Position numbers and translations under genes: made by a program. From positions 46,525 through 110,524 of the forward strand of contig JASGIW010000001.1 in the NCBI GenBank assembly GCA_047601695.1: a stretch of DNA of 64,000 nucleotides, given 5' to 3'. The notes below the pieces were generated by a model, which made no database searches, was not told the origin of the DNA, and worked only from the letters and a program-made list of their open reading frames with translations. Of the stretch, positions 1,232-42,136 are shown in pieces. This DNA is from Propionivibrio sp. (GTDB taxonomy: Bacteria; Pseudomonadota; Gammaproteobacteria; Burkholderiales; Rhodocyclaceae). Positions within the stretch are counted from its first letter, which is position 1, and every line of letters starts with the position of its first letter.

Positions 1232-2107
1232 GTGCAAACTCTTTCGCGGCGTTCGACCCGTATCGTTTCCGTCAAGCCACTCCACCATTTCTGGCGTTCT
1301 CCGGCGTTGCCTTTCGTCGAGAGCCGGCGTGCCAATGACAGCGCGGCCTGCTATGCGCCGCACTCGCATTCCACGCTGTCGATCGGTGCGGTCGACGGCG
1401 GGCAGAGCGTGTTTTCGCGCGCCGGACGGCGGCAGCGGCTGCGCAAGGGCGACGTGGTGCTGATTCCCGCCGGTGAGGTCCATTCGTGCAATCCCGAGAA
1501 CGACGGCCGCTGGAGCTATCAGATGCTCTATCTCGATCCCGCCTGGGTCGACGCGATCGTCGGCGAGATGGGCGCGCTCGATGCGGTCGTGATCAATCAC
1601 CTGCCGCCTGATGCCGCGCCGCCGCGCGTCCACCAGCGCCTGACCCGGCTCAACGCCTGTCTGTTCGGCCCGGCGACGGACGAGGACAAGGAAGCCGCGC
1701 TGCTCGTCTTCGTCGGCGACGTCTTCGGCGAGATCCGGGCGCGGACGGAAAGTCCGGGGTCTCGCCTGGACGCGCGGGAAGAGTCGGTGCGCCTGCGCAG
1801 GGCACAGGCGATGATCGCCGAGCGCTGCGCCGAGTCGCTGACCCTCGACGCATTGGCCCGCGAGGCAGGCATGAGCCGCTACCACTTCGTGCGCGCCTTC
1901 GGCCGCGCCGTCGGCATGACGCCGCATGCCTGGCAGATCGACCGGCGCATCGAGCGCGCGCGGAGCCTGCTCGAGCAGGGCATGTCGCTGGCCGACGCGG
2001 CGCTGCAGCTTGGTTTTGCCGATCAGAGCCACTTCCAGCGCGCGTTCAAGCAGCGTGTCGCGGCGACGCCGGGCGAGTATCGGCAGGTCGCCGGCAGCCC
2101 GCTGTAG
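1232..2107 (+). CDS. AraC family transcriptional regulator (cupin ligand-binding domain + HTH)
   Basis: PHSH cupin motif, LARE AGMSRYHFVRAF and LGFADQSHFQRAFK...TPGEY. Start uncertain (GTG at 1232, in frame of ORF 287..2107). Confidence 0.9.
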   Translation: MQTLSRRSTRIVSVKPLHHFWRSPALPFVESRRANDSAACYAPHSHSTLSIGAVDGGQSVFSRAGRRQRLRKGDVVLIPAGEVHSCNPENDGRWSYQMLYLDPAWVDAIVGEMGALDAVVINHLPPDAAPPRVHQRLTRLNACLFGPATDEDKEAALLVFVGDVFGEIRARTESPGSRLDAREESVRLRRAQAMIAERCAESLTLDALAREAGMSRYHFVRAFGRAVGMTPHAWQIDRRIERARSLLEQGMSLADAALQLGFADQSHFQRAFKQRVAATPGEYRQVAGSPL

Positions 2108-2112
2108 CCGGC

Positions 2113-2129
2113 GCAATTTCGTTCAATAC
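2113..2129 (+). promoter_or_regulatory. Candidate AraC-family activator site upstream of the LysE gene
   Basis: AT-rich GCAATTTCGTTCAATAC island in GC-rich DNA, just after the araC stop and about 50 bp before the lysE ATG. Inference only. Confidence 0.3.
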
Positions 2130-2180
2130 GCAACGCTCGCGGACTGCCATCCTGCGCCCATTTCATGGGTGGAGAACGGT

Positions 2181-2804
2181 ATGGCTTCGTGGCAGCAATT
2201 CCTGATCATCGCGGGCGCGCATTTTCTCGCCTTGTTGAGTCCGGGCCCGGATTTCTTTCTCATCGTGCGCAGCGCCGTGGTCAACGGCGCGCGTGTCGCG
2301 AGCGGCGTCTGCGTCGGCATCGCGCTGGCCAACGGCGTCTATATCGGCCTGGCGATCAGCGGCGTCGCCGTGTTGCAGGAGGTGGCGGGGCTGTTCGCGT
2401 TGCTCAAGTGGGGCGGCTGCGCCTATCTCGCCTGGCTCGGCTGGCGCTTTCTCACCGTGCGCGGCGAAGCGCTTGCGCCGGAAACGCGCGACGTCGGGCG
2501 ACAGCGCGGCAACTGGTGGCGCGAATGCCGCGTCGGCTTCCTCTCGGGCATCCTCAACCCGAAGAATTCCTTGTTCTACGCCAGTCTGTTTTCGCTTGGT
2601 TTCGAGCGCGGCACATCGTTCGGCGCGCAACTCGGCTACGGCGTCTGGATGTTCTGCGCGGTCCTGATCTGGGACCTGTGCATCGCCCGCGCCGCCGGCC
2701 ATCCACCGGTCGTGCGCCGCTTCATGGCGCACGTGCGCAAGATCGAGCGGATCACCGGCGTCGTACTGCTCGGCATCGCGGCGGGTATCGTCGGCGTGCG
2801 TTGA
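2181..2804 (+). CDS. LysE/RhtB family amino-acid exporter
   Basis: LLSPGPDFF, GFLSGILNPKN, six hydrophobic segments; GGAG RBS upstream of ATG 2181. Confidence 0.9.
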   Translation: MASWQQFLIIAGAHFLALLSPGPDFFLIVRSAVVNGARVASGVCVGIALANGVYIGLAISGVAVLQEVAGLFALLKWGGCAYLAWLGWRFLTVRGEALAPETRDVGRQRGNWWRECRVGFLSGILNPKNSLFYASLFSLGFERGTSFGAQLGYGVWMFCAVLIWDLCIARAAGHPPVVRRFMAHVRKIERITGVVLLGIAAGIVGVR

Positions 2805-2877
2805 GTGTCCGCCGGGTCTTGCGTGCAGCGGCATCGGATGATGAGATGCAGGCTTTCCACCGTTACGGGAGTCAGGG

Positions 2878-3234
2878 ATGAAGACCTATCGAGCCAGCTG
2901 CCACTGCGGCGCGATTCGTTTCACGTTCAAGGGGCCGGAAAGCATCGAAAACGGCCTGCGCTGCAACTGCTCGATCTGCCGGCGCAAGGGCGCGTTGATG
3001 AGCGGCTTCGTCGTCGCGCCGGATGACATGGTGATCGAGTCGTCCGGCGACGGCTTGGGGACCTACGAATTCGGCAGCGGCGTCGCCAAGCATCATTTCT
3101 GCAAAACCTGCGGCATCTACCCCTTTCACCAGACGATGCGCAAACCCGGCCATTACCGTATCAACCTCGGCTGCGTCGAGGAACTCGATGCGACGCGACT
3201 GCCGTTCGACGTGTTCGACGGCGCGTCGATCTGA
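2878..3234 (+). CDS. GFA/CENP-V family zinc protein
   Basis: CHCG, CNCSIC and HHFCKTCG Cys pattern. Confidence 0.9.
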   Translation: MKTYRASCHCGAIRFTFKGPESIENGLRCNCSICRRKGALMSGFVVAPDDMVIESSGDGLGTYEFGSGVAKHHFCKTCGIYPFHQTMRKPGHYRINLGCVEELDATRLPFDVFDGASI

Positions 3235-3257
3235 CCGGTATTGAGGAGCGACGCGCC

Positions 3258-4400
3258 GTGCGAATCGTCGTAGCGCCCGATTCCTACAAAGGCAGCGCCT
3301 CGGCGCCGGAAGTCGCGGCCGCCATGGCGCGCGGTGTCCGGCGCGTCTTCCCGGACGCCGAAGTCGTGCAGGTGCCGATCGCCGACGGCGGTGAAGGGAC
3401 CGTCCAGGCGCTGGTCGGCGCGACTGGAGGCATCATCCGGAAAAGCGAGGTGGCGGGGCCGCTCGGCGAACCGGTCGTCGCGTCCTGGGGCATCCTCGGC
3501 GACGGGCAGACGGCGGTCATCGAAATGGCCGCCGCTTCCGGCCTGACCCTGCTCGCCGCCGAACAGCGCGATCCGTTGCGGGGCACGACCTGCGGGACGG
3601 GCGAACTGATTCGTACTGTCCTGGATGCCGGGTTGCGGCGATTGATCGTCGGCATCGGCGGCAGTGCGACGAACGACGGCGGCGCCGGCATGGCACGAGC
3701 GCTCGGGGGGCGCTTCCTGGGCGAGGACGGGCGTGAATTGCCCGATGGCGGCCTCGCGCTCGCCGGACTGCGCCGGATCGACCTCGCGCGGCTCGATGCG
3801 CGGCTGAACGATTGCGAGATCGTCGTCGCTTGCGATGTTGACAACCCGCTCTGCGGTCCGCGTGGCGCCTCGGTGGTATTTGGCCCGCAGAAGGGTGCAA
3901 CGCCCGACGATGTCGTACTGCTCGACCGCGCGCTCGCCAACTATGCGGCGTGCGCCAGCGTTGCAACGGGGCGTGAAGTCGCCAGCCTGCCGGGCGCCGG
4001 CGCGGCAGGCGGATTGGGTGCCGGGTTCCTGTTCTTCACCAGCGCATGCCTCAAGCCCGGCGTCGAGATCGTCCTCGAAGCCGTCGGCTTTGCCGACCTC
4101 GTTCGTACCGCCGACTTGGTCATCACCGGCGAAGGACGAACCGACCGGCAGACCGCATTCGGCAAGGCGCCGGTCGGCGTCGCCCGCGTCGCCAAGGCAT
4201 TCGGCGTCCCGGTGTTCTGTCTCTCCGGCGCGCTGGGCGAAGGCGCCGACGACGTGCTCGAGCATGGCATCGACGCCACGTTGAGCATCTGCGACCGGCC
4301 GATGACGCTTGAGGCATGCATGCGCGACGCGGGTCATCTGATCGAATTCGGCGCGGCGCGTCTGTGCCGGGTGATCAAGGCGGCGCGCGGCCGCCGGTGA
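3258..4400 (+). CDS. glxK: Glycerate kinase
   Basis: VVAPDSYKGS, ADGGEGT, GGSATNDGGAGM, GAGAAGGLG, TGEGRTDRQTAFGK. Confidence 0.93.
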   Translation: MRIVVAPDSYKGSASAPEVAAAMARGVRRVFPDAEVVQVPIADGGEGTVQALVGATGGIIRKSEVAGPLGEPVVASWGILGDGQTAVIEMAAASGLTLLAAEQRDPLRGTTCGTGELIRTVLDAGLRRLIVGIGGSATNDGGAGMARALGGRFLGEDGRELPDGGLALAGLRRIDLARLDARLNDCEIVVACDVDNPLCGPRGASVVFGPQKGATPDDVVLLDRALANYAACASVATGREVASLPGAGAAGGLGAGFLFFTSACLKPGVEIVLEAVGFADLVRTADLVITGEGRTDRQTAFGKAPVGVARVAKAFGVPVFCLSGALGEGADDVLEHGIDATLSICDRPMTLEACMRDAGHLIEFGAARLCRVIKAARGRR

Positions 4401-4403
4401 GGG

Positions 4404-4448
4404 CGGGGCCGACGTGCCGCAACCGCCCGCGACGGCACGCCGGCCCCG
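4404..4448. terminator. GC-rich hairpin between convergent glxK and adhesin genes
   Basis: CGGGGCCGACGTGCCG (4404-4419) and CGGCACGCCGGCCCCG (4433-4448) form a 16-bp stem with one mismatch; no long U tract. Confidence 0.5.
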
Positions 4449-4451
4449 TGA

Positions 4452-6375
4452 TTACCAGGAAATTCCCACTCCGGCGCCGACGACGGTGCTCTTGCTGATC
4501 CCGCCGACCGTGGATGCGGAGACCCGTACGGCAACGTTTTCCGCCGCCCGGTACGAAGCGCCCAGGGCAACGGCGGTCATGCTTTGGAAGTTGCCGAGGC
4601 CAAGACCGACGGCGAAGCGTTTGTTCTGATCGACCTGCGGGATGTTGGCCATCGCCGACGTGCCGGCGACGCCGGCGGCAACGCCTTTCAGTTGCCTGAA
4701 ATTGACCGCGTCGAAATCTTCCGTTCCGTCGGCGACGCCGGTGACCTTGACCGGCGCGCCGTTCGTGGCGTTGCTGAAGCGCGCGCCATTGTCGTCGAGC
4801 GTCAGGCTGGTCGAATGCGTGCCGCCGGAAATCGTCGCCTGCTTCTCCGTGACGATCAGCCAGTGCGTGTTGCCGACGCCGTTGGTCAGGGTCAGCGAGG
4901 CGGTGCTTTGATCGACGATGCCGGTGGTGATCTTGCCGTTCTGGTCAACGGTGGCGCCGCTTCCGCCGCTGTTGACGATGGTCATCTGTCCGTTGGTCGA
5001 ACTGGGTGGCGTCGTTCAGGATCGAAGTGCCGGAGGTGACCGTCGTCGAGGCGGAAGTATTCGAGGTATAGACCAGCGTGCCGTTGATGTACATGTTGCC
5101 GTCGACCAGCGTATTGCCCTGCAGGCGGTTGACGTACGTAGCGCCCTCGACATTGGCCTGGCTGGCGGCGTCGCCGGCGATCAGCGCGGGACCGGAGGTG
5201 CCGACGACGTACGGTGTGGCCGTCGAGGTGTAGCTGCCGCCGCCGGCATTGCCGATCGAGGTCGATGTATTGGTCACATTGATGGAACCGCCGCCGACCG
5301 TGCCGTTGATGTGCGTCGCATCGACGGTCAGGGTATTGGCGCCGAACGCCGTTTGCGCCTGCGTGTTGGTCGCCGTGTAGCTGCCGCCGCCGGCGACCGA
5401 CAGGCTGGCGTCGTTGTTGGCGAGCAGCATCGTGCCGTTGCCGCCGTGCGCGGTGACCGTCGTGCTCGTGTTGGCGTTGCCGAGGGTATTGGTGCTGGCG
5501 TAGCCGGCGTTGGTGCCGATGTTGTTGATGGAACTGTTCAGGCTGGTGCTGTTGGCGGCGTTGCCGATGGTGACGGTGCCGGTGCTGGTGCCGATGTTGG
5601 TGGCGGCGGTGCCGCTGGCGTTGATGTTGGCGGTGCCGGCCTGGTTGAGCGTGCCGGTGTTGTTGATCCCGGCCGTCGTGGTCGTACCGGTGACGTCCAG
5701 CGAACCCGTTGCGATATTGCCGCTGTTGGTGATGCTGGACGAATCGATGTGGCCGGTCGATACGGCGTTCGACGTGACCGTGCCGGAAGCGCTGACGTTC
5801 CCGGCGCCGCTGATGTTGCCGGCATTGTTGACGCCCTGGTTGTGGTTTTCGAAGACGCCGCCGATATTCTCCAGACCGCCCAGGCTGGTGATTTTCCCTG
5901 AACTGACCATGCTGCCGCCGGCGAGAACGTTGCCGGAAGTGGTGACGTTGGTGGCCCCGATGGTACCGGCGTTGACGATGCCGGCGTTATTGTTGTTGAT
6001 TCCTCCATAGGTGTGGGTCGTACCGTACAGCGACGTATCTCCGCTGACTGAAAGATCGCCATCGATCCCGGTAATCCCGGTGATCATGGCGCCGCCGGAA
6101 ACGTCCAGACCATCGGTGACGCTCAGGCCGTAATTGATCAGGGAGCCGTTCAGGTCGCCCAGGCTGGCAGCCACGGTGGTCGTTCCGGGACCGTTATAGA
6201 TGATGAACGACCCTACGCTGCCATTGTCGGTATTGATGTTGACCGTCACATCGTTGGCGTCGGAGCCGATATTCGTCTGCGCGACGGCCATGCCGGAGAA
6301 ACAGCCGGCGACCAGCAGCGCGATGAGTTTGAGTTGATGAACGTTCATGTTCTGGTTGGCGCGCTTGGGTTTCAT
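4452..6375 (-). CDS. YadA-family trimeric autotransporter adhesin (about 640 aa; one frameshift near 5005)
   Basis: Signal MKPKRANQNMNVHQLKLIALLVAGCFSGMAVA; Gly/Asn/Thr-rich passenger; neck motif VKVTGVADGTEDFDAVNFRQL; anchor ending GAGVGISW. Removing one G from GGG at 5004-5006 joins the two ORFs (ATSSTNGQMTIVN). Confidence 0.88.
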
Positions 6376-6407
6376 AAGGATTTCTCGAAAAATGAAGTCA
6401 ATCGGAG

Positions 6408-6950
6408 TTACATAACGAGTTCTTTTTTGATCGACACGCAGCCGCTGCCGGCCGGCATCAGGAAAATGCGGGCCGGGGTTTCGCTTTCGAGCACGAGAAC
6501 GTCCTTCTGCAGCGAACGGCCCTTCCTGAACTGGGCGAACTGCCTGGCCGCGACGGTGTTGCATTTCTGCGGCCAATAGACGACGGCTTCGTAAACGGCG
6601 CCGCTGCCGTTGGCCTGGTTGGGCGCGAAGCTGGCGCTGGCGTAGGCGGGGGGCGCGTTGGCGGTTTGCGGCTGCACTTCGTAGGAAAAGGACACCAGAC
6701 GTTGGTCGGGCGGCGCGGGCGGGGCGAAGAAGTAGGCGCCGACCTTGGCGTTGGCGCCGATGAACTGGCTGACCTGGTCGATGCGCCCGGCGCAGGCCAG
6801 CACGCCGGCCCTGGACGCCGCCTGGGCGACGGCACCCGGCGCTGGCGACGGTGCGGAATTGGGTGAATTGGCCGGGCTGGGTTCGGCGGCGAGCGCTACG
6901 CCAGCGCAGGCGGCAAGGATGATGCACAACGCGACGCGTCGGGCGGTCAT
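6408..6950 (-). CDS. Exported hypothetical protein immediately upstream of the adhesin
   Basis: GGAG RBS; signal MTARRVALCIILAACAGVALA; Pro/Ser/Ala linker; globular domain with three Cys; stop 32 bp before the adhesin start. Confidence 0.75.
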   Translation of the reverse strand: MTARRVALCIILAACAGVALAAEPSPANSPNSAPSPAPGAVAQAASRAGVLACAGRIDQVSQFIGANAKVGAYFFAPPAPPDQRLVSFSYEVQPQTANAPPAYASASFAPNQANGSGAVYEAVVYWPQKCNTVAARQFAQFRKGRSLQKDVLVLESETPARIFLMPAGSGCVSIKKELVM

Positions 6951-7060
6951 GTCTCCCGACGGGTGCGTCAATGGATATGGCGATCGTTGCGGCATGCGTC
7001 CAGTCCGAATCTTCTGTTGGATAGCGTCGGCAAATGGTAGTCATCGAGCGCCGGTCGAAA

Positions 7061-7116
7061 CTGTCGCCTACTGTTGCCCGCTGTCGGTCGCATGCCGAGG
7101 CTGTCAAACGCTGTCA
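7061..7116. promoter_or_regulatory. Array of CTGT(C/T) direct repeats at exact 10-bp phase (candidate OmpR/PhoB-family boxes)
   Basis: CTGTC 7061, CTGTT 7071, CTGTC 7081, CTGTCA 7101, CTGTCA 7111, in the divergent intergenic region. Confidence 0.6.
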
Positions 7117-7157
7117 ATTGCTTGCCGCCGCTTTCGCTTGGGCTATATTCCGCGCCT

Positions 7158-9239
7158 ATGCGCCGATATTTCCTCCATGAACACCGGGATGCCGGATACG
7201 TTGAACGCGTTGAATCCGACCGACGCGCGCGCTGTTTCGGGCATCGTCTCCTTGCCTTCCTGCTGCCGCTGCTTTGCCTCTTCTGCGCCGCTTGCGGCCC
7301 GGCCCCGCTGTCGGGATCGTCGGGCGGCAGCGGCGCGGTTGCCGTGCGCGCCGTCGACGGCCGTGCTGGTCCCGGAAATCGCGGTACTGGTCAACGAAGG
7401 AGGCGGCGAGACCATCGAATCCGTGGCCGGCACTTCGGCCAGCCGGTTTCGCCCGCTGGGCACTCCCCTCAGCGCCGGCTACACGCGCAAGGCGCACTGG
7501 CTGCGGGTTTCGTTGCGGCGGGAGGCGGCGACTCCCTTGCGCTGGCTGCTGGAACTCGGCCCCGGCTACCTGGACGACGTGCGGCTGTATACGCCGGATG
7601 CCGGCGCGCCGAACGGTTTCCGCAAGCGTCTGGCCGGCGACCGCCTGCCGTTCGCGGCGCGCGAGGTGGCGCACCGGCTGTTCGTTTTCCTTGTCGATCT
7701 GCCCGATGGGAACGCGCCCTGCACGCTCTATCTGCGCCTGCAATCGACCAGCACCCTGATGGCGCACCTGACGTTCTGGGAACTCCGCGCCTTCGCGACG
7801 GCGACGCAGGGCGAATACCTGGTCCTCGGCGTTCTCCTCGGCGCTTTGTGCCTGATGCTGCTTTACTCGGCGACGTATTGGTATTTCCTGCGCGAACGCT
7901 ATCTGCTGCTGTTCGTCGGCCTCGTGCTGGCTATGCTGATCGCGCATTTCGGCACCAACGGCCTGGCTGAGCAGTTCCTGTTCCGGCGCATCCGGCGCTG
8001 GCCAACCTGTTCGCGCCGGTGGGGGCGTGCCTGTTGATACTTTTCGACTTCTGGTTCTTCCTCGACTTCCTCAAGGTCTGGCAACGCCATCCCTGGCTCA
8101 GCAAGTTCTACGTCGCCACCATGGCGCTCTCGGTCGTCGCGCTGCCCGGGATGGTCTTCGGCTACTACGTCGAGATCGCGCCGGTGCTGATGGCGTGTTC
8201 GCTGGTGAGCCTGCCGTTCTGCCTGGCGGTCGCCTGGCGCTCGATCGGCCTGGATATCCTCGGCAGCCGCTGGGTCGCCTCGGCCTATGCCTGGTATTGC
8301 CTGGTGGTCGCCTTCAACCTGCTGTCGGTGCTCGGCTTTGTTCTGGGCCACACGTTCACGATCTACGGCTGGCAGTACGGCGCGCCGATCTACGTGGTAT
8401 TCCTGATGTCGGGCGTGCTGACGCGCGTGCGCGAAATGGAGCGCCGCCGCGACCAGGCGATCGCCAGTTCGCTCGCCGCCGAAGCGAAGGCCGAGGTCGC
8501 CCACGCGCAACGGGAAGAAAAGAGCCGCTTCCTCTCGCTGATGACGCATGAGCTGAAAACGCCGCTCGCCGCGATCGACGCCGCCGTGCAGGCGCTCGGC
8601 TATGCGTCGGAACGGGAAGATCTGGCCGCCACGCGCCGCCACCAGCGCATCCGCGAAGCGGTGGCGCGCCTCAACATGCTGCTGGAGGATTCGCTGGCCG
8701 TCGTCCGCGATGAAGCGGCATCGAACCGGCCGTTCCATTTCCGCCGGAACCGGGTCGTCATGGAGGAACTGCTGCGTTCGCTCCGCGCGGCGTATTCGAC
8801 TTCCGGGTCCGATGGCGTCGGCACCGCCCGCGTTCGTTTCGAAGCGGTGCCGAACGTCGAGTTCCGTGGTGACGGCACGCTCTTGCGCCTGGCGCTCAGC
8901 AATCTGCTGGACAATGCGCTCAAGTACGGAATGGCCGGCCATGCGGTGACCGTGTCGGTTCGCGAACGGCCGCATCTCGATCAACCCGGCATCGCCTTCG
9001 AGGTCACGAGCGCTTTTGCCGGAGCAATCGATGAGGACTGCGCGGTCTGGTTCGAAAAATTCTGGCGCGGGAAGGAGCACGCGACGATCGAAGGTGTCGG
9101 CCTGGGTCTCTACCTGGTTCGTTCGATCGCCGAGGCGCATGGCGGTGACGCATGGTGCTGCGCGCGCAAGGACCAGAGCGGGCTCGTTCCGGCGTGGCTG
9201 GTGGCGACGCTCTGGATAAGAGGACTGGTTGCAGTATGA
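7158..9239 (+). CDS. 7TM-DISM sensor histidine kinase (frameshifts near 7360 and 7983)
   Basis: DISMED2-like HWLRV...WLLEL...LDDVRLY...LYLRLQS; about 7 hydrophobic segments; H-box MTHELKTPL; NLLDNALKY; GVGLGLY. +1 G at 7359-7360 and -1 C near 7983 restore one frame. Confidence 0.85.
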
Positions 9240-9381
9240 GAAGAATCGCCTCGAACTGCTGCTCTCACGCCTGCGCCGGAAATTCCGCGAGACCAATGAA
9301 TTGTCGATCAATCCGGTCAAGCCCGTACGCAACGAGGGATATCAGCTGACGATCTTTTTACGGGCGGACGACAGCCGTTGA
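9220..9381 (+). pseudogene. C-terminal fragment of an OmpR/PhoB-type winged-helix response regulator
   Basis: Not in the ORF track. Translates EDWLQYEKNRLELLLSRLRRKFRETNELSINPVKPVRNEGYQLTIFLRADDSR*, matching the recognition helix (SRLRRK) and wing (VRxxGY). In-frame TAA at 9217-9219; no receiver domain. Confidence 0.7.
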
Positions 9382-9487
9382 GGCAGCTTGATCCACTGCG
9401 GGATTGGAATGGCCACTCTAATATTTGCCGCAACAGGAAGCCCGGTTTTGACCAGTGGATAGTCCGTTCAGGGTGGCGGATTGACCA

Positions 9488-10186
9488 TCACTGCCTCGGG
9501 ATGGTGATTCTCTCCGCGCGTTCCAGGGCATCAAAGAAATCCGAAAGCCGCCGGCCGGGCAGATCAGGGAAGGTATCCTCGCTGACCGTCAGTTGCCCGA
9601 TGCGGTCGACGCGAAAGTGCCGGAAGCCGTCGCGCAACAGACACCAGCCGATGAGCGTCCAGTGTCTTCCCCAGAAGAAGAGTCCGAGCGGCCAGAGTGT
9701 GCGTTCGGACATTTCGCCGTCTTCACGCGTGTAGGCCATGGTGACGATCCGGCGTTGGCGTACGGCGCGGCGCAGTTCGGTGAGGTGGCCCGGCCGCTCG
9801 TTCTGCGGCGGCGGGATGAACAGTTGCGCGCGTTGCGCTTCGCGGCGCAGCAGGTCGGGCAGGACGTTGTGGATCTTGGCCAGCGCGGCGGTCGCGGCCT
9901 GCGCGAGGTCAGCGTCGCCCCAGGCCTGCACCATGCGCGAGCCGACGAGCAGCGCTTCGAGTTCGGCCGGATCGAAGAGCAGCGGTGGGACGTCCAGCCG
10001 GTAGCGCAGTCGGTAGCCGACGCCGGCCTCGCCCTCGATCGGCACGCCGGACAGCGTCAGATCGTGGATGTCGCGGTAGAGCGTGCGCAACGAGACTTGC
10101 AGCTGCTCGGCGAGCCAGCCGCCCGTTGCCAGCCGCTTGCTGCGCAGGAGTTCGACCAGGCGAAAGAGGCGATCGGCACGGCGCAT
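9488..10186 (-). CDS. yafY: YafY-family HTH-WYL transcriptional regulator
   Basis: MRRADRLF...VSLRTLYRDI...GEAGVGY; WYL domain WTLIGWCLLRDGFRHFRVDRI. Confidence 0.92.
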   Translation of the reverse strand: MRRADRLFRLVELLRSKRLATGGWLAEQLQVSLRTLYRDIHDLTLSGVPIEGEAGVGYRLRYRLDVPPLLFDPAELEALLVGSRMVQAWGDADLAQAATAALAKIHNVLPDLLRREAQRAQLFIPPPQNERPGHLTELRRAVRQRRIVTMAYTREDGEMSERTLWPLGLFFWGRHWTLIGWCLLRDGFRHFRVDRIGQLTVSEDTFPDLPGRRLSDFFDALERAERITIPRQ

Positions 10187-10220
10187 GGGGTGTGTATTCG
10201 AGAGAAGCGAGCACCCGATT

Positions 10221-10844
10221 CTACGCACTGACAGCCAGCATGAGGGCGTCGAAATACGCCCGGCGACCGGTTTTGAAAAGTCCGTACCAAGCATCGAGTA
10301 CGGCCGGTGGATAGAGATCCAGCCGGCGGAAGATGTGCTGTGCGAAGTCAACCGGCGCGGTACCGGAGGCGGTGATGACGTCGTCGTCAGTGACGGCGGG
10401 AACCTCTTCGTAAAGCGCCAGGCCGTGGTATCCGGTCGCTGCCAGATATTCGCGCGCATTGCTGGTATGGCGTCGCTTATCGAGCAGACCGCCGCGAGCC
10501 AAGGCGGCGGTCGCCGCGCAGATGGCGGCGATCGGTACGCCGGCGGCGATAAATGTCCGTACGGTTGCGATGGCCTCCGTGTTTCCGCCCGACTCCCAAA
10601 CGTCGCCGCCGGGCAGGATCAGCATCGCGGTCTCGGCGGAGTTGATCTCCGCGAGCGTCAGGTCGGGGACGATGCGGATACCACCCATCGTTTGCACGAC
10701 GTCGGGTCGCGCGGCCACGGTACGCACCCGGTAGCGGCCAGGGATGCGCTGGAACCGAGGGTTGTTGATCGCGGCGACGGCGTGGCCGGCCTCCCAGTCG
10801 GAGAGTCCATCGAAGACGAAAAGGAGAACATCCAGCGGTCTCAT
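10221..10844 (-). CDS. DJ-1/PfpI family protein
   Basis: DWEAG acidic residue, LILPGG, nucleophile AAICAA. Confidence 0.9.
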   Translation of the reverse strand: MRPLDVLLFVFDGLSDWEAGHAVAAINNPRFQRIPGRYRVRTVAARPDVVQTMGGIRIVPDLTLAEINSAETAMLILPGGDVWESGGNTEAIATVRTFIAAGVPIAAICAATAALARGGLLDKRRHTSNAREYLAATGYHGLALYEEVPAVTDDDVITASGTAPVDFAQHIFRRLDLYPPAVLDAWYGLFKTGRRAYFDALMLAVSA

Positions 10845-10913
10845 GTCCATTGCTCCGCAGAAGATTGGAAACCCGGGCGGAGGCGTTGTCGAAACCGGCT
10901 CCGCCCACGGCGC

Positions 10914-11282
10914 TCAGTGCAGCGAGTGCAGCCCGACGATGTTGCCTTCACTGTCGCTGAACATGCCGATGTAGCCGATGTCGTCGCGCAGGAAAGTCCT
11001 CGGCATGATGATCCGTCCGCCAGCGCCTTCCACCCGGTCGAGAATCGGCCGTAGATCGTCGCCGGCGTTGAGGTAGATGCGGACGCCGTCGGCGTGCGGC
11101 CGCGCCTGTTCGAATTCGATCAGGCAGCCGCCGACGCCGGGTTCCGTATAGGGCAGCATCGCCATGCGCATGCCGGGGAAGCTCTCGTCGATCGGCAGTC
11201 GGGCGGCGAGGATCTGTTCATAGAACTTCACCGCGCGTTCGAGCTTGGCAGCAGGGATTTCAAACCAGTTGAGCGCATTCAT
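10914..11282 (-). CDS. VOC/glyoxalase family protein
   Basis: MNALNWFEIPA...RAVKFY; FSDSEGNIVGLHS; AAGGAG RBS. Confidence 0.9.
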   Translation of the reverse strand: MNALNWFEIPAAKLERAVKFYEQILAARLPIDESFPGMRMAMLPYTEPGVGGCLIEFEQARPHADGVRIYLNAGDDLRPILDRVEGAGGRIIMPRTFLRDDIGYIGMFSDSEGNIVGLHSLH

Positions 11283-11329
11283 CGGGAACTCCTTGTAGTG
11301 GTGGGTTGGAGTCCGCATGATGCGCGCGG

Positions 11330-11355
11330 CCTGCTGACAGCGTGGTGTCAGCAGG
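11330..11355. promoter_or_regulatory. Perfect palindrome, candidate WYL-regulator operator
   Basis: CCTGCTGACA-GCGTGG-TGTCAGCAGG (10-6-10), 48 bp upstream of the VOC start. Confidence 0.65.
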
Positions 11356-11365
11356 GTTGGGGTGT

Positions 11366-11818
11366 TCAGCGGCCGGAACGTTGCGCCAGAAAACGGTCGA
11401 GATGTCCGGCGAACGCCTTCTGCTCGGCGGCGCTCATCGGCGGCGGTCCGCCGGTTTGGACGCCGCTCGCGCGCAGGTTGTCCATGAAGTCGCGCATGTT
11501 GAGCAGCGGGCGGATGTTGGCCGCGGAGTACCACTCGCCGCGATGGCTGAGCACGTGGCCGCCTTTCTCGATGACTTCGGCGGCGAGCGGCAGGTCGCTG
11601 GTGATGACCAGATCGCCGGCACTCGCCCGCTTGACGATCTCGTTGTCGGCGACGTCGAAGCCGGCCGCGACCTGTACGCTGCGGATGTACGGCGACGGCG
11701 GTACGGTGAGCGTCTGGTTGGCGATCAGCGTCAGCGGAATCCGCGTCCGGTTGGCGGCGCGGAAGAGGATGTCCTTGATCGCCCGCGGGCAGGCGTCGGC
11801 GTCGACCCAGATCTGCAT
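11366..11818 (-). CDS. yaiI: YaiI/YqxD (UPF0178) family protein
   Basis: [43 protein letters not shown]. Confidence 0.9.
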
Positions 11819-12831
11819 CAGATGAGCTTCACGGCCTTGAGCTCGTCCTTCAGCCAGGCGTAGGCGATGGGCGCGGCGACCAGGCCGGCGACGCCGAACG
11901 CGCTTTCCATGGCCAGCATGGCGGTGAGCAGTTCCCAGGCGCGGGCGTTGATCTGCCCGCCGACGATGCGCGCATTGAGGAAGTACTCGAGCTTGTGGAT
12001 CAGGATGAGGAAGCCGAGCGAGGCGAAGGCGATCTGCGGCGAGTGCGCCATGCTGACGATGACGATGACCGAGTTGGAGATCAGGTTGCCGACGACCGGG
12101 AGGAGCCCGGCGAGGAAAGTGACGACGATCATCGTCTTGGTGAGCGGCAGATGGACGCCGCAGGCGGGGAGGACGACGATCAGGTAGATCGTCGTAAAGA
12201 AGGTGTTGAGCGCGGAGATGCGGATCTGTGCGAAAACGATGCGGCGGAACGCCTCGCCCAGCCGGAAGACGCGTTCGGCCAGCGCGCGGGCGAGCGGCGC
12301 GCGTTGGGTGTCGCCCAGGGCGTCGCGCAGCGAAGCCATGGCGCCGATCACCATGCCGATCAGGAGTTGGGCGAGCGCGTGGCCGGTGTCCTTGCCGATC
12401 GATTGCAGCTCGGACGCGTGTTCGCGCAACCACAGGCTCAGCGTGTCGCGCACGCCCTGCGCGGTGCTCGGCAGGAACTCGACGATCCAGGCCGGCAGCG
12501 TCGAGCGCGAGTCCTCGATGATGTCGGCCATCTTGGCGAGCAGCGCGGAAAGACTGCCGCCTTCCCCCTTCATGAAAACGACGATCCCGAAGCTCGCGGC
12601 AGCGATGACGCCGATGACGATCAGCGAGACGACGACGATCGCCGCCGCCTTGGCGCGGCGCGTCGTCATGTGACGGGCGAAGAGCGGGGCGAGCACATGC
12701 ACCAGTTCGTAGACGAGCAGTCCGGCGATCAGCGCCGGCAGGAGACGAAAGTGCAGCGTGAACAGCATGGCGAGCGCGGCCAGTATCCACGAGGCGTATT
12801 CGGAGTGGGTGATACGTGTGTTCTTGTTCAT
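11818..12831 (-). CDS. AI-2E (PerM) family transporter
   Basis: Multiple TM segments; [33 protein letters not shown]. In frame with the upstream flavoprotein with no stop between them. Confidence 0.85.
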
Positions 12832-14130
12832 GGGCAATCCGTGGAACGGGGAATGCGCTGCCTCGGCGGCCGCGCGGGCGGCCAACGCGATGGATTCAAG
12901 CACGCCCTGCCCGGCAGTGTAGCCGCTCGCGAAGCATGCGGTCAGCAGGTAGCCGCCGGTCGGCGCTTCCCAGTCGAGCATTTCGCCGGCGCAAAAGACG
13001 CCCGGCAAGTCGCGCAGCATCAGGCGTTCGTCGAGCGCCGCGAAAACCACGCCGCCGGCGCTGCTGATCGCCTCGTCGAGCGGGCGCGGTGCGACCAGCC
13101 GCAGCGGCAGCGCTTTGATGGCGTGCGCCAGGTGGGACGGATCGGCGATTTCGTCGCGCGTCAGGCATTCGTGCAGCAACGCCGTCTTCACGCCCTTGAG
13201 GCCCAGACGGCTCCGCAGATGGCTCGCCAGCGAACGCGAACCGCGCGGCCGGGCGACTTCGTCGACCACGCGCTGTAGTTCGTGGCCGGGCAGCAGGTCG
13301 AGCCGAAGCGTCGCGCTGCCGTCGCGCGCTATCGCGTCGCGCAAAGGGGTGGAAAGCGCGTAGATCAGACCGCCTTCGACGCCGCTATCGGTGATGACGA
13401 ACTCGCCTTGCCGGCGATGCTCGCCGCCTGCCGGATCGGTGACCGACGCGCAGACGGCTTTCACCGGCTGGCCGGCAAAGCGTTCGCGCAGATACGGACT
13501 CCAGTCGGCGTCAAAGCCGCAATTGGCCGGGCGCAACGGCGCGACCGGGATGCCGGTCCGTTCCAGCAGGCCGACCCAGCGGCCATCCGAACCGAGCTTG
13601 GCCCAACTGCCGCCGCCGAGTGCCAGCACGACATGATCGGCTTCGATCCGGTTTTCGCCCTCCGGCGAATCGAACAGCAATCGGTGGCGGCCATTGGCCA
13701 AGCGCTCCAGGCCGGCCAAGCGATGCCGAACATGAAAACGCACCGCCTGCTCGCGTAGCCGGTGCAGCCAGGCACGCAGCAAGGGCGCGGCTTTCATCTC
13801 CTTCGGAAAGACACGGCCGGAACTGCCGACGAAACTCTCGACACCCAACCCAAGCATCCATGCGCGTAGCGCATCCGGGCCGAAAGCTTCGATCAGCGGC
13901 GCCAGCATCTCCCGGCGTGTCCCATAGCGGCCGAGGAACGATTCCCGCGGTTCCGAATGCGTGATGTTCATGCCGCCCTTGCCGGCCATCAGAAACTTGC
14001 GGCCGACCGAGGGCATCGCGTCGAACAGGTCGACTTTCGCGACCGATGCGCGCGAAATGACCTCCGCCGCCATCAGCCCGGCCGGACCGCCGCCGACGAT
14101 GGCGACATTCGGTATGACGTGGTTGTCCAT
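12832..14130 (-). CDS. HI0933/BaiN-like flavoprotein (TIGR03862-like); reads through into the AI-2E gene
   Basis: [59 protein letters not shown]. Confidence 0.88.
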
Positions 14131-14135
14131 GGCGC

Positions 14136-14925
14136 CTAGGCGATGGCGGACAGTTGCGCCGGCGCCGGCTGGCGGCTTTGGAGGTGGCCCAGGCCAAGGC
14201 GGTGGAGCGCGTCCTGCAGTCGCTCCGGCAGCGCGGTCGCCAGGAGCCGCAACTGCCGCGATCCTTCGCCAGCTTGGCCGGCCAGTCGTACACACTGCCG
14301 GGCGACGGCGTCGGCCACGTCGATCAGTTCGGCGCGGTCGCCGACGATGGGCTTGAGTATCGGAGCGAGAAAGGTGTAATGCGTGCAGCCGAGGACAAGG
14401 CGATCGCTGCCGCCGTCGAGCGTCGGCTCAAGAAGCGCGCGAACGGCGTCGATAAACGCCGGATCGTCGAGCAGGCCCTTTTCGACGCGAGTTGCCCAGT
14501 CCGGGCACGGCACGATGTTCAACTTGAACGTTGCTGGCGTGCCGCCGAACGAGATCCTTCAGGCGTTCGCTACGCGCGGTGGACACCGTGGATAGCACCG
14601 CGATGCGCCGGCTGCGCGAGGATGCCGCCGCCGGCTTCACGCCCGGCTCGACCCCGATCACCGGTAGGGCGGGCAGGACCGCGCGCAGTTCGGAAACGGC
14701 CGCCGCGGTCGCCGTGTTGCAGGCGACGACGATCATCGAGCAGCCTTGCGCCATCAGATGACGGCCGATTTTCAGAACGCGCTCGCGGATGAACTCGTCG
14801 CTTTTTTCGCCGTAGGGCACGTGCGCCGTATCGGCGAGATAGCACAGGTCGGCATCGGGCAGCGCTTCGGCGATGGCCGCCAGCACCGACAGTCCGCCCA
14901 GGCCGCTGTCGAAAACGCCGATCAT
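14136..14925 (-). CDS. murI: Glutamate racemase (frameshift near 14522)
   Basis: IGVFDSGLGGLSV, PYG, VACNTA and LGCTHY split over two frames; one extra base joins them. Confidence 0.92.
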
Positions 14926-14971
14926 GGGGGGCACCTGCGAGGAGGTGGGTTCATTCTTAAGACCTTGTTCA

Positions 14972-15113
14972 AACCACAACGACACAACGGGCACAACGAA
15001 AAAACGAAGCATTTCCTCTTGCCGATGATTCATTCACCGGGCGATGGGATGAGAGGGGTTGAAAACCCTGGTTTTCGCTTGGTTTTCGTCGTGCCCGTTG
15101 TGTCGTTGTGGTT
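14972..15113. repeat. 142-bp inverted-repeat element (31-bp arms built of CACAACG subunits); MITE/REP-like
   Basis: 14972-14994 is the exact reverse complement of 15091-15113; pairing extends to 31 bp with one mismatch; internal GAAAACC-CT-GGTTTTC hairpin at 15061-15076. Confidence 0.75.
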
Positions 15114-15152
15114 AACCGCTTTTTTCCAGTTTCATTCTTCAGAGCAACGAGG

Positions 15153-15179
15153 AAAAAAGCCGGCGCGAGGCCGGCTTTT
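15153..15179 (-). terminator. Rho-independent terminator downstream of fumA
   Basis: AAAAGCCGGC-GCGAG-GCCGGCTTTT stem with A/T tracts on both sides. Confidence 0.8.
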
Positions 15180-15197
15180 CTTGGGTTGTGTCGATAC

Positions 15198-16748
15198 TCA
15201 GTGCTTGTTGGCGAACAGCGTTTCGACCGGGATCTTGCCGATCTTGGTGCACCATTCGATCGGACCGGTCGTATGCACCGAGGTGCCTTCCGAATCGACC
15301 GCGACTGTGACGGGCATGTCCTGCAGGTCGAATTCGTAGATCGCTTCCATGCCGAGGTCGGCGAAGCCGACGACCTTGGCGCCCTTGATCGCCTTGGCGA
15401 CCAGGTAAGCGGCGCCGCCGACGGCCATCAGGTAGGCCGACTTGTTGTCCTTGATCGCGGCGATCGCCGTCGAGCCGCGCTCGGACTTGCCGACCATGGC
15501 GATGAGGCCGGTCTTCTCCAACATCATGCGGGTGAATTTGTCCATGCGCGTGGCGGTCGTCGGGCCGGCTGGGCCGACCACTTCGTCGCCGACCGGGTCA
15601 ACCGGGCCGACGTAGTAGATGACGCGGTTGGTGAAGTCCACCGGCAGCTTCTCGCCCTTGGCCAGCATGTCCTGGATGCGCTTGTGCGCGGCGTCGCGGC
15701 CGGTCAGCATCTTGCCGTTCAGGAGCAGCTTCTGGCCCGGCTTCCACGCGGCGACTTGTTCCTTGGTCAGCGCGTTGAGGTCGACACGGGTGGCTTCCTT
15801 GAGGTCCGGCGTCCAGGTGACGGCCGGCCAGTCTTCCAGCTTCGGCGGCTCAAGCTTGGCCGGGCCGTTGCCGTCGAGGTGGAAATGCACGTGGCGCGTC
15901 GCGGCGCAGTTCGGCACCAGCGCGACGGGAAGATTCGCGGCGTGGCACGGGTAGTCGAGCACCTTGACGTCGAGCACGGTGGTTAGGCCGCCGAGACCCT
16001 GGGCGCCGATGCCGAGCGCGTTCACCTTCTCGTAGATTTCGAGGCGCAGTTCTTCGGCGCGCGTGAGCTTGGCGCCGGAAGTAGCCTTGGCCTTCAATTC
16101 GTGCATGTTGCACGGCGCCATGATCGATTCCTTGGCCAGCAGCATCGCCTTTTCCGGCGTGCCGCCGATGCCGACGCCGATGATGCCGGGCGGGCACCAG
16201 CCGGCGCCCATGGTCGGCACGGTCTTGAGAATCCAGTCGACGAGGTCGTCGGACGGGTTGAGCATGGCGAACTTGGACTTGGCTTCCGAGCCGCCGCCCT
16301 TGGCCGCGCAGATGACCTCGACGTGGTCGCCGGCGACGATCTCGTAGTGCACGACGGCCGGCGTATTGTCCTTGGTGTTCTTGCGCGTGCCGGCCGGGTC
16401 GGCCAGCACCGAGGCGCGCAGCGGATTGGCCGGGTCGGCGTAGGCGCGCTTGACACCTTCGTTGACCATCTCCTGCAGCGTCATCGTCGCGTCGTCCCAG
16501 CGCACGTTCATGCCGACCTTGAGGAAGACCATGCCGATGCCGGTGTCCTGGCAGATCGGGCGGTGGCCTTCGGCGGACATGCGCGAGTTGGTCAGGATCT
16601 GCGCGATGGCGTCCTTGGCGGCCGGGCTTTCTTCGCGGTCGTAAGCTTCGCCGAGCGCCTTGATGAAGTCGAGCGGATGGTAGTAGCTGATGTACTGGAA
16701 GGCATCGGCGATGCTCTGGATCAGGTCTTCCTGCTTGAGGCTGGTCAT
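15198..16748 (-). CDS. fumA: Class I (Fe-S) fumarate hydratase
   Basis: PICQDTG, KGGGSE, GAGWCPPG, GRDAAHKR, GPAGPTTATRMD. Confidence 0.93.
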   Translation of the reverse strand: MTSLKQEDLIQSIADAFQYISYYHPLDFIKALGEAYDREESPAAKDAIAQILTNSRMSAEGHRPICQDTGIGMVFLKVGMNVRWDDATMTLQEMVNEGVKRAYADPANPLRASVLADPAGTRKNTKDNTPAVVHYEIVAGDHVEVICAAKGGGSEAKSKFAMLNPSDDLVDWILKTVPTMGAGWCPPGIIGVGIGGTPEKAMLLAKESIMAPCNMHELKAKATSGAKLTRAEELRLEIYEKVNALGIGAQGLGGLTTVLDVKVLDYPCHAANLPVALVPNCAATRHVHFHLDGNGPAKLEPPKLEDWPAVTWTPDLKEATRVDLNALTKEQVAAWKPGQKLLLNGKMLTGRDAAHKRIQDMLAKGEKLPVDFTNRVIYYVGPVDPVGDEVVGPAGPTTATRMDKFTRMMLEKTGLIAMVGKSERGSTAIAAIKDNKSAYLMAVGGAAYLVAKAIKGAKVVGFADLGMEAIYEFDLQDMPVTVAVDSEGTSVHTTGPIEWCTKIGKIPVETLFANKH

Positions 16749-17991: not shown

Positions 17992-19963
17992 ATGTCCCAG
18001 AATGAGTCCGTTCAGCTTTTTCAACCGCCTGCCGAATTCGTCAAGCAGGCCACGATCTCCGGCATGAACGCCTACAAGGCGCTGTGCGACGAAGCCGGCA
18101 AGGACTACACCGGTTATTGGGCGCGGTTGGCGCGTGAGCACGTGACCTGGAAACAGCCGTTCACCCAGATTCTCGACGAGTCCAATGCACCGTTCTACAA
18201 GTGGTTCGCCGACGGCAAGCTGAACGCGTCGTACAACTGCCTCGATCGCAATATCGAAGCCGGTCTGGGCGACAAGGTGGCGATCGTTTCCGAGACGGAC
18301 GACGGGGAGGTCAGGCGGATCACTTACAAGGAACTGTTGGCCAAGGTCAATCAACTCGCCAACGGCCTGCGCGCGCAGGGCATCAGGAAGGGCGACCGCG
18401 TCATCATCTACATGGCGATGGGCATCGAAGGCGTGATCGCCATGCAGGCCTGCGCCCGGATCGGCGTCATCCACTCGGTGGTGTTCGGCGGCTTCTCGGC
18501 GCAGTCGGTGCGCGACCGGATCAACGACGCCGGCGCCATCGCGGTGATCACCACCGACGAACAATGTCGTGGCGGCAAGAAGTTGCCGTTGAAGCCCGCC
18601 GTGGACGAAGGCATCGCGCTCGGCGGCTGCGAATCGATCAAGAAAGTGATCGTTTTTCGGGCGCACGGGCGGTACATGCCCGATGGTGGCCGGGCGCGAT
18701 CTCTGGTGGGACGACGTGATCGCCGGCCAGTCCGACGTTTGCGAGCCGGAGTGGGTCGACGCTGAGCATCCCTTGTTCCTGCTCTACACCTCGGGGTCGA
18801 CCGGCAAGCCGAAGGGCGTGCAGCACTCGACGGGCGGCTACCTGCTGCACGCCGTGCTGACCATGAAGTGGACCTTCGATCTGAAGCCGCACGACATCTT
18901 CTGGTGTACCGCCGACATCGGCTGGGTAACCGGCCATACCTACGTCGCCTACGGCCCACTCGCTTGCGGCGCGACGCAGATGGTGTTCGAAGGCGTGCCG
19001 ACCTATCCCGACGCCGGGCGCTTCTGGAAGATGATCCAGGATCACCGGATCAACATCTTTTACACGGCACCGACCGCGATCCGCTCACTGATCAAGGCGG
19101 CGGATACCCATCCGGAAGTCGCCCCGACCCAATACGACCTGTCCTCCCTGCGCCTGCTCGGCACCGTCGGCGAGCCGATCAATCCGGCGGCTTGGCTGTG
19201 GTACCACGAGAAGGTCGGCGGCAACCGCTGCCCGATCGTCGATACGTTCTGGCAGACCGAAACCGGCGGCCACATGATCACGCCGCTGCCCGGCGTGACG
19301 CCGCTGGTGCCTGGTTCCTGCACGCTGCCGTTCCCCGGCATCCAGGCGACGATCGTCGATGAAACAGGAACAGAGCTGGATTGGGGCAAGGGCGGGCTGC
19401 TCGTCGTCAGCAAGCCGTGGCCATCGATGATCCGCACGATCTGGGGCGATCCTGACCGCTTCAAGCGCTCGTACTTCCCGGACGACTTCCAGGGCAAGCT
19501 GTACCTCGCCGGCGACGGTGCGGTACGCGATGTGCACACCGGTTACTTCACGATCACCGGCCGCATCGACGACGTGCTGAACGTCTCCGGCCACCGCATG
19601 GGCACCATGGAGATCGAATCGGCGCTCGTCTCCCATCCGATGGTGGCCGAAGCAGCTGTCGTTGGGCGCCCCGACGAGCTGACCGGCGAGGCGATCTGCG
19701 CCTTCGTCGTACTGAAGGGCGCGCGCCCGGTCGGCGAAGCGGCGGGCAGGATGGTCAAGGAATTGCAGGACCACGTGGCGAAGGAAATCGGACCGATCGC
19801 CAAGCCGAAAGATATCCGTTTCGGGGAGAACCTGCCGAAGACGAGATCGGGTAAGATCATGCGCCGCCTCTTGCGTTCCCTGGCGAAGGGTGAGACAGTC
19901 GCGCAGGACGTTTCGACGCTGGAGAATCCGGCGATCCTTGAGCAGCTCAGAGGTCATGCCTGA
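17992..19963 (+). CDS. acs: Acetyl-CoA synthetase (frameshift near 18660)
   Basis: [47 protein letters not shown]; extra G in CGGGCGC at 18658-18664. Confidence 0.95.
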
Positions 19964-24917: not shown

Positions 24918-25186
24918 TGTCGTCAGCCGAAAAACAGCGAGCCTACTGGCGGCGGACGTCGCGGCTTACCATGGCGCTGCTCGTGATCTGGCTTCTCGTG
25001 ACACTCGGCGTCTGCTTTTTTGCGCGCGAACTCAACGAAATCACTGTTTTCGGCTTTCCATTGGGGTTTTACATGAGCGGGCAGGGCGCCTTGGTGATCT
25101 ATGTCTTGATCGTCGGCTATTTCGCGCGAAGCATGAACGCCATTGACGAGAAGCACGTCGCTCGTCATGCGGAGCGTGACGAGTAG
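24917..25186 (+). CDS. DUF4212/DUF485 small membrane partner of SSS symporters
   Basis: AYWRRT, GFPLGFYMSGQGALVIY; ATG overlaps the symporter TGA. Confidence 0.88.
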   Translation: MSSAEKQRAYWRRTSRLTMALLVIWLLVTLGVCFFARELNEITVFGFPLGFYMSGQGALVIYVLIVGYFARSMNAIDEKHVARHAERDE

Positions 25187-25231: not shown

Positions 25232-25326
25232 GGCGGGTCTCCCCGCATTGCGGCGTAGTGAACCTGGTCAGGTCCGGAAGGAAGCAGCCACAACTATTTT
25301 CCGTGAGTGCCGGGGTAAGGCTCGCC
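25232..25326 (+). ncRNA. ffs: Signal recognition particle 4.5S RNA
   Basis: Helix-8 motif GTCAGGTCCGGAAGGAAGCAGC; ends GGCGGG / CTCGCC pair; T-rich tail follows. Confidence 0.95.
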
Positions 25327-25381
25327 ATTTTCTTTGGCGCGCCGGCGTATTTCCGGGAGGCGGACAGGTTTCCGACAGAAG

Positions 25382-29843: not shown

Positions 29844-29845
29844 GA

Positions 29846-31107
<1,262 letters not shown>

Positions 31108-31111
<4 letters not shown>

Positions 31112-37304: not shown

Positions 37305-37323
37305 TTTCTTGTTTGGAGTACGT

Positions 37324-40815: not shown

Positions 40816-42136
<1,321 letters not shown>

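Follow-up and report, generated by a model that had tools for sequence, protein, structure and literature searches.

A conserved cassette of an exported cysteine-containing protein and a trimeric autotransporter adhesin, with an optional two-component system, in a Propionivibrio contig and in other bacteria

In a 64,000-nt stretch of the Propionivibrio sp. assembly GCA_047601695.1 (contig JASGIW010000001.1, positions 46,525 to 110,524; hereafter the window), positions 4452–9381 hold a gene for a trimeric autotransporter adhesin (TAA), a gene for a small exported protein that we call the partner and, divergent from these, a sensor kinase gene followed by the tail of a response regulator gene. 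Do these genes work together, and is the unit intact? A reading of this DNA made without database searches (the sequence-only reading) had proposed a self-contained, glycan-sensing switch for surface adhesion, with an adhesin helper of a new type. The elements and coordinates listed in that reading were each found in place. The minus strand encodes the exported partner with four cysteines (6408–6995) and the YadA-anchor TAA (4452–6375). The plus strand encodes a 7TMR-DISMED2 histidine kinase (7158–9239), divergent from the partner, and then the tail of an OmpR-type regulator (9220–9381). The G+C content is ~65% across this region. Loci found through homologues elsewhere are labelled L followed by a number.

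The partner and the TAA form a real cassette that appears to be undescribed; a TAA with a co-encoded accessory protein is already a known kind of arrangement. A search of a 90%-identity collection gave 429 partner homologues at E ≤ 1e-3, and in a set of 1.84 billion 50%-identity clusters a profile search picked up 577 representatives. Among the matches listed (150 of 577), every partner is a stand-alone protein of roughly 105–300 amino acids. A scan of one genome per species yielded 79 loci labelled as beta-, gamma- and deltaproteobacteria, Nitrospiraceae, Elusimicrobia, Planctomycetes-related, Holophagaceae, Omnitrophota, Bacteroidetes and Hydrogenedentes. In the six-frame open reading frames (ORFs) of these loci, an iterated profile search placed a same-strand YadA-anchor ORF next to the partner in 50 (46 downstream, 4 upstream) and an anchor elsewhere in the flank in 3. 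Twenty-one loci have less than 3 kb of downstream flank and are uninformative, and 5 have no anchor despite at least 3 kb. The claim that adhesin and exported partner are linked is borne out by these homologues, with a TAA directly adjacent on the same strand in 50 of the 58 informative species-level loci. Evolutionary distances between partners and between TAA C-termini are correlated (Mantel r = 0.40; 0 of 2000 permutations reached this value), as expected of co-inheritance. Clustering of all neighbouring ORFs revealed no third conserved neighbour gene.

The family was also approached from the adhesin side. A homologue search with the TAA C-terminus returned only proteins of at most 316 amino acids, apparently fragments. 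Four loci were reached in this way: L093 has a partner together with a DISMED2 kinase and a regulator, L092 lies at a contig end, and L090 and L091, whose anchors are more distant, have no partner. Cultured carriers of the two-gene cassette include Polaromonas jejuensis NBRC 106434 (L002) and Cupriavidus numazuensis LMG 26411 (L064). In loci of a Smithella-related clade (L018, L032, L041, L042, L055 and L073) a same-strand gene lies directly upstream of the partner; it resembles a short-chain dehydrogenase by sequence motif and may be a clade-specific addition to the cassette.

The partner gene (6408–6995, minus strand) starts at ATG 6995 or ATG 6950; the former is invariant across the five orthologous spacers aligned. 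Only 32 nt separate its end from the start of the adhesin gene, and the equivalent gap is 18–51 nt in L015, L081 and L084. In an alignment of the family (A1), the protein consists of a signal peptide, a variable Pro/Ala-rich linker and a globular domain of ~140 amino acids. This domain has four conserved cysteines and, across 28 diverse members, 27 invariant positions, among them the hairpin motifs FAPNQANGCG and FLMPAGxGC. An AlphaFold 2 model has a mean predicted local distance difference test score (pLDDT) of 81, with the last 50 residues mostly near 90, and places two short helices against an antiparallel sheet. The partner has an α/β domain of ~140 amino acids, and its four conserved cysteines probably form two disulfides. 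No Pfam or NCBIfam family matched it at E up to 0.01, and a profile search against PDB sequences gave nothing at E ≤ 1. We considered a lipoprotein and rejected it: the LAAC motif in the window copy is not kept in the family, and alignment A1 has no conserved lipobox. With no significant Foldseek match either, the proposal of a helper unlike the SadB and TpgA types agrees with the data. Among the metagenome contigs scanned with the partner protein, none had a copy closer than 78% identity, and the contig collection has no entry for the window copy itself.

The adhesin gene is read in two frames in the window. Its N-terminal part (5002–6375, minus strand), recognized by tblastn to the TAAs of L081, L084 and L015, encodes a signal peptide (MKPKRANQNMNVHQLKLIALLVAGCFSGMAVA) and a Gly/Thr/Asn/Ser/Ala-rich passenger. 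This frame runs from ATG 6375 to a stop at 4945; the passenger has ~440 amino acids, and Gly, Thr, Asn, Ser and Ala make up ~64% of the residues. The C-terminal part (4452–5000, minus strand), placed by Pfam and homology in the other frame, has a conserved pre-neck module, a neck (VTGVADGTEDFDAVNFRQL), a short stalk and the YadA membrane anchor, and ends with the stop codon at 4452–4454. A neck-like motif, GVADGTEDFDAVNFRQL, can be read in it. The ORF at 4452–4985 matches YadA_anchor (PF03895, E = 2.8e-15, profile positions 1–60 of 60) and, right before it, YadA_stalk (PF05662, E = 3.5e-11), and the C-terminus is 81–90% identical to its counterparts in L081 and L084. Passenger and anchor fall into different frames through a single extra T near 5001. 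The window passenger has no Pfam or NCBIfam family and no known head domain. In six partner-linked TAAs from elsewhere, head families (YadA_head, Hep_Hag and similar) were absent even at E up to 1, and YadA_anchor was the only TAA-related Pfam family matched in the partner-linked TAAs scanned. We refer to such adhesins as 'headless'.

The two-component system is joined to this cassette in a minority of genomes. Eight of the 79 species-level loci have a DISMED2 kinase gene at most ~2 kb upstream of the partner, oriented divergently in L007, L014 and L015 and co-directionally in L011, L021, L025, L026 and L028; the output regulators beside these kinases are OmpR-type or NtrC-like. The kinase is divergent in all six distinct closest relatives of the window locus (L080, L081–83, L084–85 and L086), and in three of these the four-gene module is complete, each time among different flanking genes. 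The order regulator–kinase reading away from partner–TAA is intact in L015 and L081–83, and the shorter contigs of L080, L084/85 and L086 have the same four-gene arrangement as far as they extend. L093 presents another order at 1513–15036, with a DISMED2 kinase on the minus strand and an OmpR-type regulator, the partner and the TAA on the plus strand. The DISMED2-linked loci fall in one half of a neighbour-joining tree of partners, where they are dispersed. When two-component genes of any type are counted, 17 of the 79 loci have a kinase or regulator gene within 3 kb. The proposed link to the DISMED2 kinase therefore stands in part: it recurs in several gene orders and is intact in L015 and L081–83, and it is confined to a minority of loci. 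Since ~90% of partner loci have no DISMED2 kinase, the regulatory link is optional, and the locus is best described as a cassette with an optional dedicated two-component system, a link that is real. Six proteins flanking the module in the window were tested and had no counterpart beside the module in any related locus, which suggests that the module moves as a unit. In L048 (Geobacteraceae; 9935–16728) the partner gene is separated from its TAA gene by genes for a hybrid histidine kinase and an NtrC-like regulator. Downstream of its TAA, L093 encodes an OmpA-like outer-membrane protein and a giant Big_13/FG-GAP surface protein.

In the window itself, the kinase gene is spread over three frames as assembled and is collinear with the uninterrupted kinases of L080 and L081. 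The start codon and the signal sequence or first transmembrane helix are in frame 1 (7158–7352). The DISMED2 sensor and the first helices of the seven-transmembrane (7TM) region are in frame 2 (7354–7983), located by Pfam and by tblastn and blastn against L080 and L081. The remaining 7TM helices, followed by HisKA and HATPase_c, are in frame 3 (7983–9239) by Pfam and homology. All these parts are on the plus strand. Pfam matched 7TMR-DISMED2 (PF07696) at E = 1.8e-31, 7TMR-DISM_7TM (PF07695) in two pieces (profile positions 1–60 and 75–201) and both HisKA and HATPase_c. The regulator is a remnant of the last 50 codons of the winged-helix domain (9220–9381, plus strand). It is 78% identical to residues 182–231 of the intact 233-residue OmpR-type regulator in L081 and has a weak Trans_reg_C match (E = 0.0049, profile positions 42–77 of 77) below the curated cut-off. 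These domains and this identity agree with the earlier description of a 7TM-DISM kinase followed by an OmpR-type tail.

Lesions were mapped against the intact relatives L080, L081–83, L084–85 and L015. On the minus strand, the adhesin has a +1 frameshift at 4999–5004, where CAG-TTCG-ACC stands in place of the sequence that encodes ATQ-S-TNGQM in the relatives. The kinase has lost 2 nt beside a GCGCGC run at ~7352 and one T from a TTT run at ~7981. At 9218–9220 (plus strand) a deletion junction marks the loss of ~588 bp, as judged by tblastn and by block spacing: the homologous blocks on its two sides are 75 nt apart in the window versus 663 nt in L081. Kinase homology reaches the junction and regulator homology restarts immediately after it, and the kinase ORF stops 7 codons beyond. 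The loss takes in the final codons of the kinase gene, the stretch between the two genes and regulator residues 1 to ~181; what is left of the regulator has no start codon, no receiver domain and no complete winged helix. The exact junction sequence was not found in metagenome contigs. All of these lesions had been overlooked in the sequence-only reading, and its claim of a self-contained switch does not hold for this copy. Without the receiver domain and most of the DNA-binding domain of its regulator the switch is broken in this genome, and the adhesin and kinase frames are interrupted as assembled.

The two operons share a divergent spacer, which measures 207 bp, as had been reported, when the partner start is taken at 6950 and 162 bp when it is taken at ATG 6995. 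The phased repeats noted there by the earlier reading were recovered by a pattern scan as an array of CTGTC(A)-like pentamers in a single 10-bp register (7061–7135, plus strand). Pentamers with at most one mismatch start at 7061, 7071, 7081, 7101, 7111 and 7131. Neither strand of the 64-kb window has another run of three or more consecutive sites, and 0.24% of shuffled sequences equal this one. The array has a conserved core, CTGTCAAACGCTGTCAA, at 7101–7117. The core CTGTCAAnnnCTGTCAA occurs once in the window and, in a five-way alignment of spacers, is exact in four and one base off in L015. Exact CTGTC copies stand at multiples of 10 bp in the spacers of L080, L081, L084 and L086. Tandem direct repeats with ~10-bp spacing are typical of OmpR/PhoB-type operators, and by this analogy the CTGTCA array is a candidate operator of the OmpR-type regulator. 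A sigma-70-like promoter for the kinase gene (TTGCCG-16 nt-TATATT, 7122–7149, plus strand) was the sole promoter-like site in a scan of 4300–9600. This promoter reads towards the kinase gene, shares sequence with the downstream end of the array and has a TATATT element that is kept in the orthologous spacers. A search of 6300–7400 against Rfam found no riboswitch or other known RNA.

The reading that we favour, with confidence a little above even, is that the locus is a copy of a conserved partner–TAA cassette joined to a dedicated two-component system, broken here by deletion. The partner, exported by the Sec route, would be co-transcribed with a 'headless' TAA that ends in a neck, short stalk and YadA anchor. 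It would most likely act as a periplasmic factor dedicated to this TAA class, holding, folding or stabilizing the adhesin at the outer membrane; this role would parallel that of SadB and TpgA for their adhesins, but with an unrelated fold. The kinase would respond to a periplasmic signal, and the phosphorylated regulator would probably bind the 10-bp-phased CTGTCA repeats in the shared spacer and so control both its own operon and the partner–adhesin operon. The domains, the synteny counts, the repeats with their conservation and the lesions are observed; we infer the binding, the co-regulation and the nature of the signal, as well as the helper function, the last of these from synteny only.

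Several observations weigh against this reading. Two loci, L065 and L072, have a partner and no TAA despite 8–10 kb of downstream flank; of the five loci without an anchor, these are the only ones with long flanks. The window partner has Ser in place of Cys116, a cysteine kept by 90% of members and by every close relative. No structural match points to a role for the partner: the best Foldseek match to the PDB has an E-value of 0.07, and TM-scores are at most 0.34 and mostly ~0.2. Where the upstream flank reaches at least 3 kb (67 loci), only 7 loci have a DISMED2 kinase there. The CTGTCA repeat is confined to the clade of the window locus and L015, and the promoter scan of 4300–9600 gave no promoter for the partner–TAA operon. 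A search for public sequencing runs that hold 4452–9381, with which the lesions could be verified, listed none.

A rival that we think unlikely is that the whole module is a decaying pseudogene cluster in which, after loss of the regulator, selection on the adhesin and kinase ceased, and the frameshifts and the Cys-to-Ser exchange are real mutations. Co-decay of linked genes would itself argue that the genes work together. The number of lesions is in favour of decay: three small indels fall in the 4.9 kb of the module, which also has the large deletion, versus at least four small indels in the other 59 kb (Poisson P ~0.005 for at least three at the outside rate), and the partner has lost a 90%-conserved cysteine that all close relatives keep. 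Indels across the window were located by a codon-model Viterbi segmentation with Pfam checks, which replaced a plot of frame by third-position G+C that was too noisy. This segmentation missed the ~7352 frameshift, so the numbers of indels given for the rest of the window are lower bounds. That rest was searched much less thoroughly than the module, and the enrichment is therefore overstated and a mere hint of real decay.

The indels outside the module speak against decay. On the plus strand, acs (acetyl-CoA synthetase) is split into 17992–18762 and 18650–19960 by an extra G in CGGGCGC near 18660, hisS into 31108–32160 (catalytic core) and 32066–32407 (anticodon-binding domain) by an extra T near 32090, and purA into 40822–41454 and 41438–42133 (Adenylsucc_synt positions 1–199 and 201–416). 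An Asp/Glu racemase gene is apparently split into 14139–14558 and 14431–15033 on the minus strand, where the Pfam match ends at position 149 of 211 and the catalytic-Cys motif is in the other frame. Genes such as hisS and purA are not expected to be broken in a living cell, and hence the contig carries consensus indel errors. With similar ±1 indels in hisS, purA, acs and the racemase gene, the small frameshifts of the module may be assembly errors too; the extra T in the adhesin is of the same kind as the indels in hisS and acs. The three small frameshifts are thus indistinguishable from consensus errors, and we rejected them as proof of a pseudogene, as hisS and purA are affected likewise. 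The 588-bp deletion is unlike the run-length errors elsewhere and is probably genuine.

Doubtful, and ranked below decay, is the explanation that the partner is not a biogenesis helper but a secreted or surface co-adhesin, a cap or inhibitor that keeps the adhesin from associating with itself too early, or a periplasmic co-sensor through which the kinase would register adhesin export. Synteny shows that genes are linked, not how they are linked. The very high conservation of the partner would also fit an enzyme or a ligand-binding protein, and its top Foldseek matches, all insignificant, are mostly Bet v1/START-like or lipocalin-like ligand-binding folds. However, no such match exceeds a TM-score of 0.34, and a co-sensor fits poorly with the ~90% of partner loci that have no kinase. 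The tight, co-oriented pairing with the TAA together with the strong conservation favours a periplasmic factor dedicated to the adhesin.

It is improbable that the kinase and regulator act on other genes and that chance or shared mobility brought them next to the cassette. The low frequency of the kinase (7 of 67 loci) would fit such an arrangement, as would the closest species-level relatives, L001 and L002, which have no two-component system within 10 kb. However, 7TMR-DISM kinases are rare genes, and distant lineages repeatedly have one directly next to the cassette, where three gene orders occur and the output regulator is either OmpR-type or NtrC-like. The four genes also travel together into different genomic contexts, and the phased repeats sit between both operons. 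More improbable still is that assembly created every lesion, the 588-bp gap among them, and that the four-gene module is intact and working in the organism: the contig plainly has consensus indels in essential genes, no reads were found and no other assembly was found to contain the junction sequence, but a clean 588-bp loss is unlike the run-length errors elsewhere in the window, and kinase homology runs up to the junction with regulator homology at once beyond it.

If the favoured reading is correct, how does the cassette compare with described systems? As described in PMC3953254, SadB is a small exported protein encoded beside the TAA SadA in Salmonella and other Enterobacterales, promotes surface display and is a trimeric lipoprotein with similarity to MATH domains; a 2026 survey finds it restricted to Enterobacterales. 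Both systems place a small exported protein next to a TAA. Unlike SadB, the partner has no conserved lipobox and no significant match to a PDB sequence or fold, and it occurs in many phyla. TpgA of Acinetobacter sp. Tol 5 is a periplasmic protein co-encoded with the TAA AtaA and associates with its membrane anchor (PMC12523085), and according to the 2026 survey its homologues carry a BamE domain, some also an OmpA peptidoglycan-binding domain. An accessory protein is co-encoded with the TAA in both cases, whereas the partner matches neither of these domains nor any other Pfam family. The survey, a preprint on TAA neighbours worldwide, lists TpgA and SadB as the sole described helpers and reports no further helpers of outer-membrane translocation. 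It sampled only TAAs with a YadA head domain, and the TAAs linked to the partner, which have no such head, lie outside this sample.

It is an even call whether the partner is a third family dedicated to TAAs, specific to a 'headless' Gly/Thr/Asn-rich subclass in many environmental lineages and often under a two-component system, most often of the DISMED2 type. TAA gene clusters of the Burkholderia cepacia complex, such as BCAM0218–BCAM0228, also have kinase and regulator genes nearby, which were proposed to control adhesin expression (PMC3417366, 2011). They resemble the present locus in that a sensor kinase and a response regulator lie near a TAA; they differ in that no partner of this family is described and their TAAs were placed among the classical ones, whereas those studied here are headless. 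The kinase has the same architecture of a periplasmic DISMED2 domain and a 7TM sensor as RetS and LadS of Pseudomonas aeruginosa. RetS and LadS govern whether the cells live sessile or turn motile or virulent. They are hybrid kinases that act through GacS/Rsm and not through an OmpR-type regulator of their own with an operator nearby. In a review (PMC7695008), calcium is named as the ligand of LadS and is the one DISMED2 ligand given, while that of RetS is described as unidentified and its periplasmic domain as resembling a carbohydrate-binding module; nothing found at the present locus is evidence for the glycan sensing that had been suggested.

The locus points to a tightly linked and highly conserved partner of a different, mostly environmental, TAA subclass, and the pair gives a concrete handle on the assembly of non-canonical type Vc adhesins. 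Where a DISMED2 kinase recurs with the candidate operator, the system is simple enough for finding both a DISMED2 ligand and a direct output, which are hard to establish for RetS-type sensors. The window copy is a poor specimen for such work: its regulator is deleted, and assembly errors may account for the breaks in its adhesin and kinase genes. This genome, with indel errors in housekeeping genes, calls for caution.

By Pfam scan, the module is flanked by a glycerate kinase gene (3258–4400, plus strand) and a gene for a WYL/helix-turn-helix regulator (9488–10459, minus strand). The plus-strand run at 26987–39482 has the Pfam content of housekeeping genes: RlmN-like, a tetratricopeptide repeat (TPR) protein, RodZ-like, GcpE (IspG), HisRS, a TPR_21 protein, BamB-like, a Der/EngA-like GTPase, an HflX-like GTPase and two Band_7 proteins, the first with an HflK N-terminus. 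This run identifies the window as chromosomal core DNA. The IspG encoded here is ~90% identical to that of Propionivibrio sp., and the 257.5-kb contig is therefore probably from a Rhodocyclaceae-like genome. The small bacterial signal recognition particle RNA lies at 25232–25329 (plus strand; Rfam RF00169, 80 bits) and is the sole Rfam match in the window at the gathering threshold. Between 42000 and 53000 the G+C content drops from ~65% to 51–56%. This segment holds MacB/FtsX-like permeases, a PEP-CTERM protein (46935–47765) and a Wzz-like chain-length determinant (48992–50272), and may be an exopolysaccharide/exosortase-type island of foreign origin. A sodium:solute symporter ORF (22868–25186, plus strand) runs in frame into a C-terminal DUF4212 match. 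DUF4212 proteins are small and encoded by separate genes that precede such symporters; the order seen here looks unusual and could be a fusion or another assembly effect.

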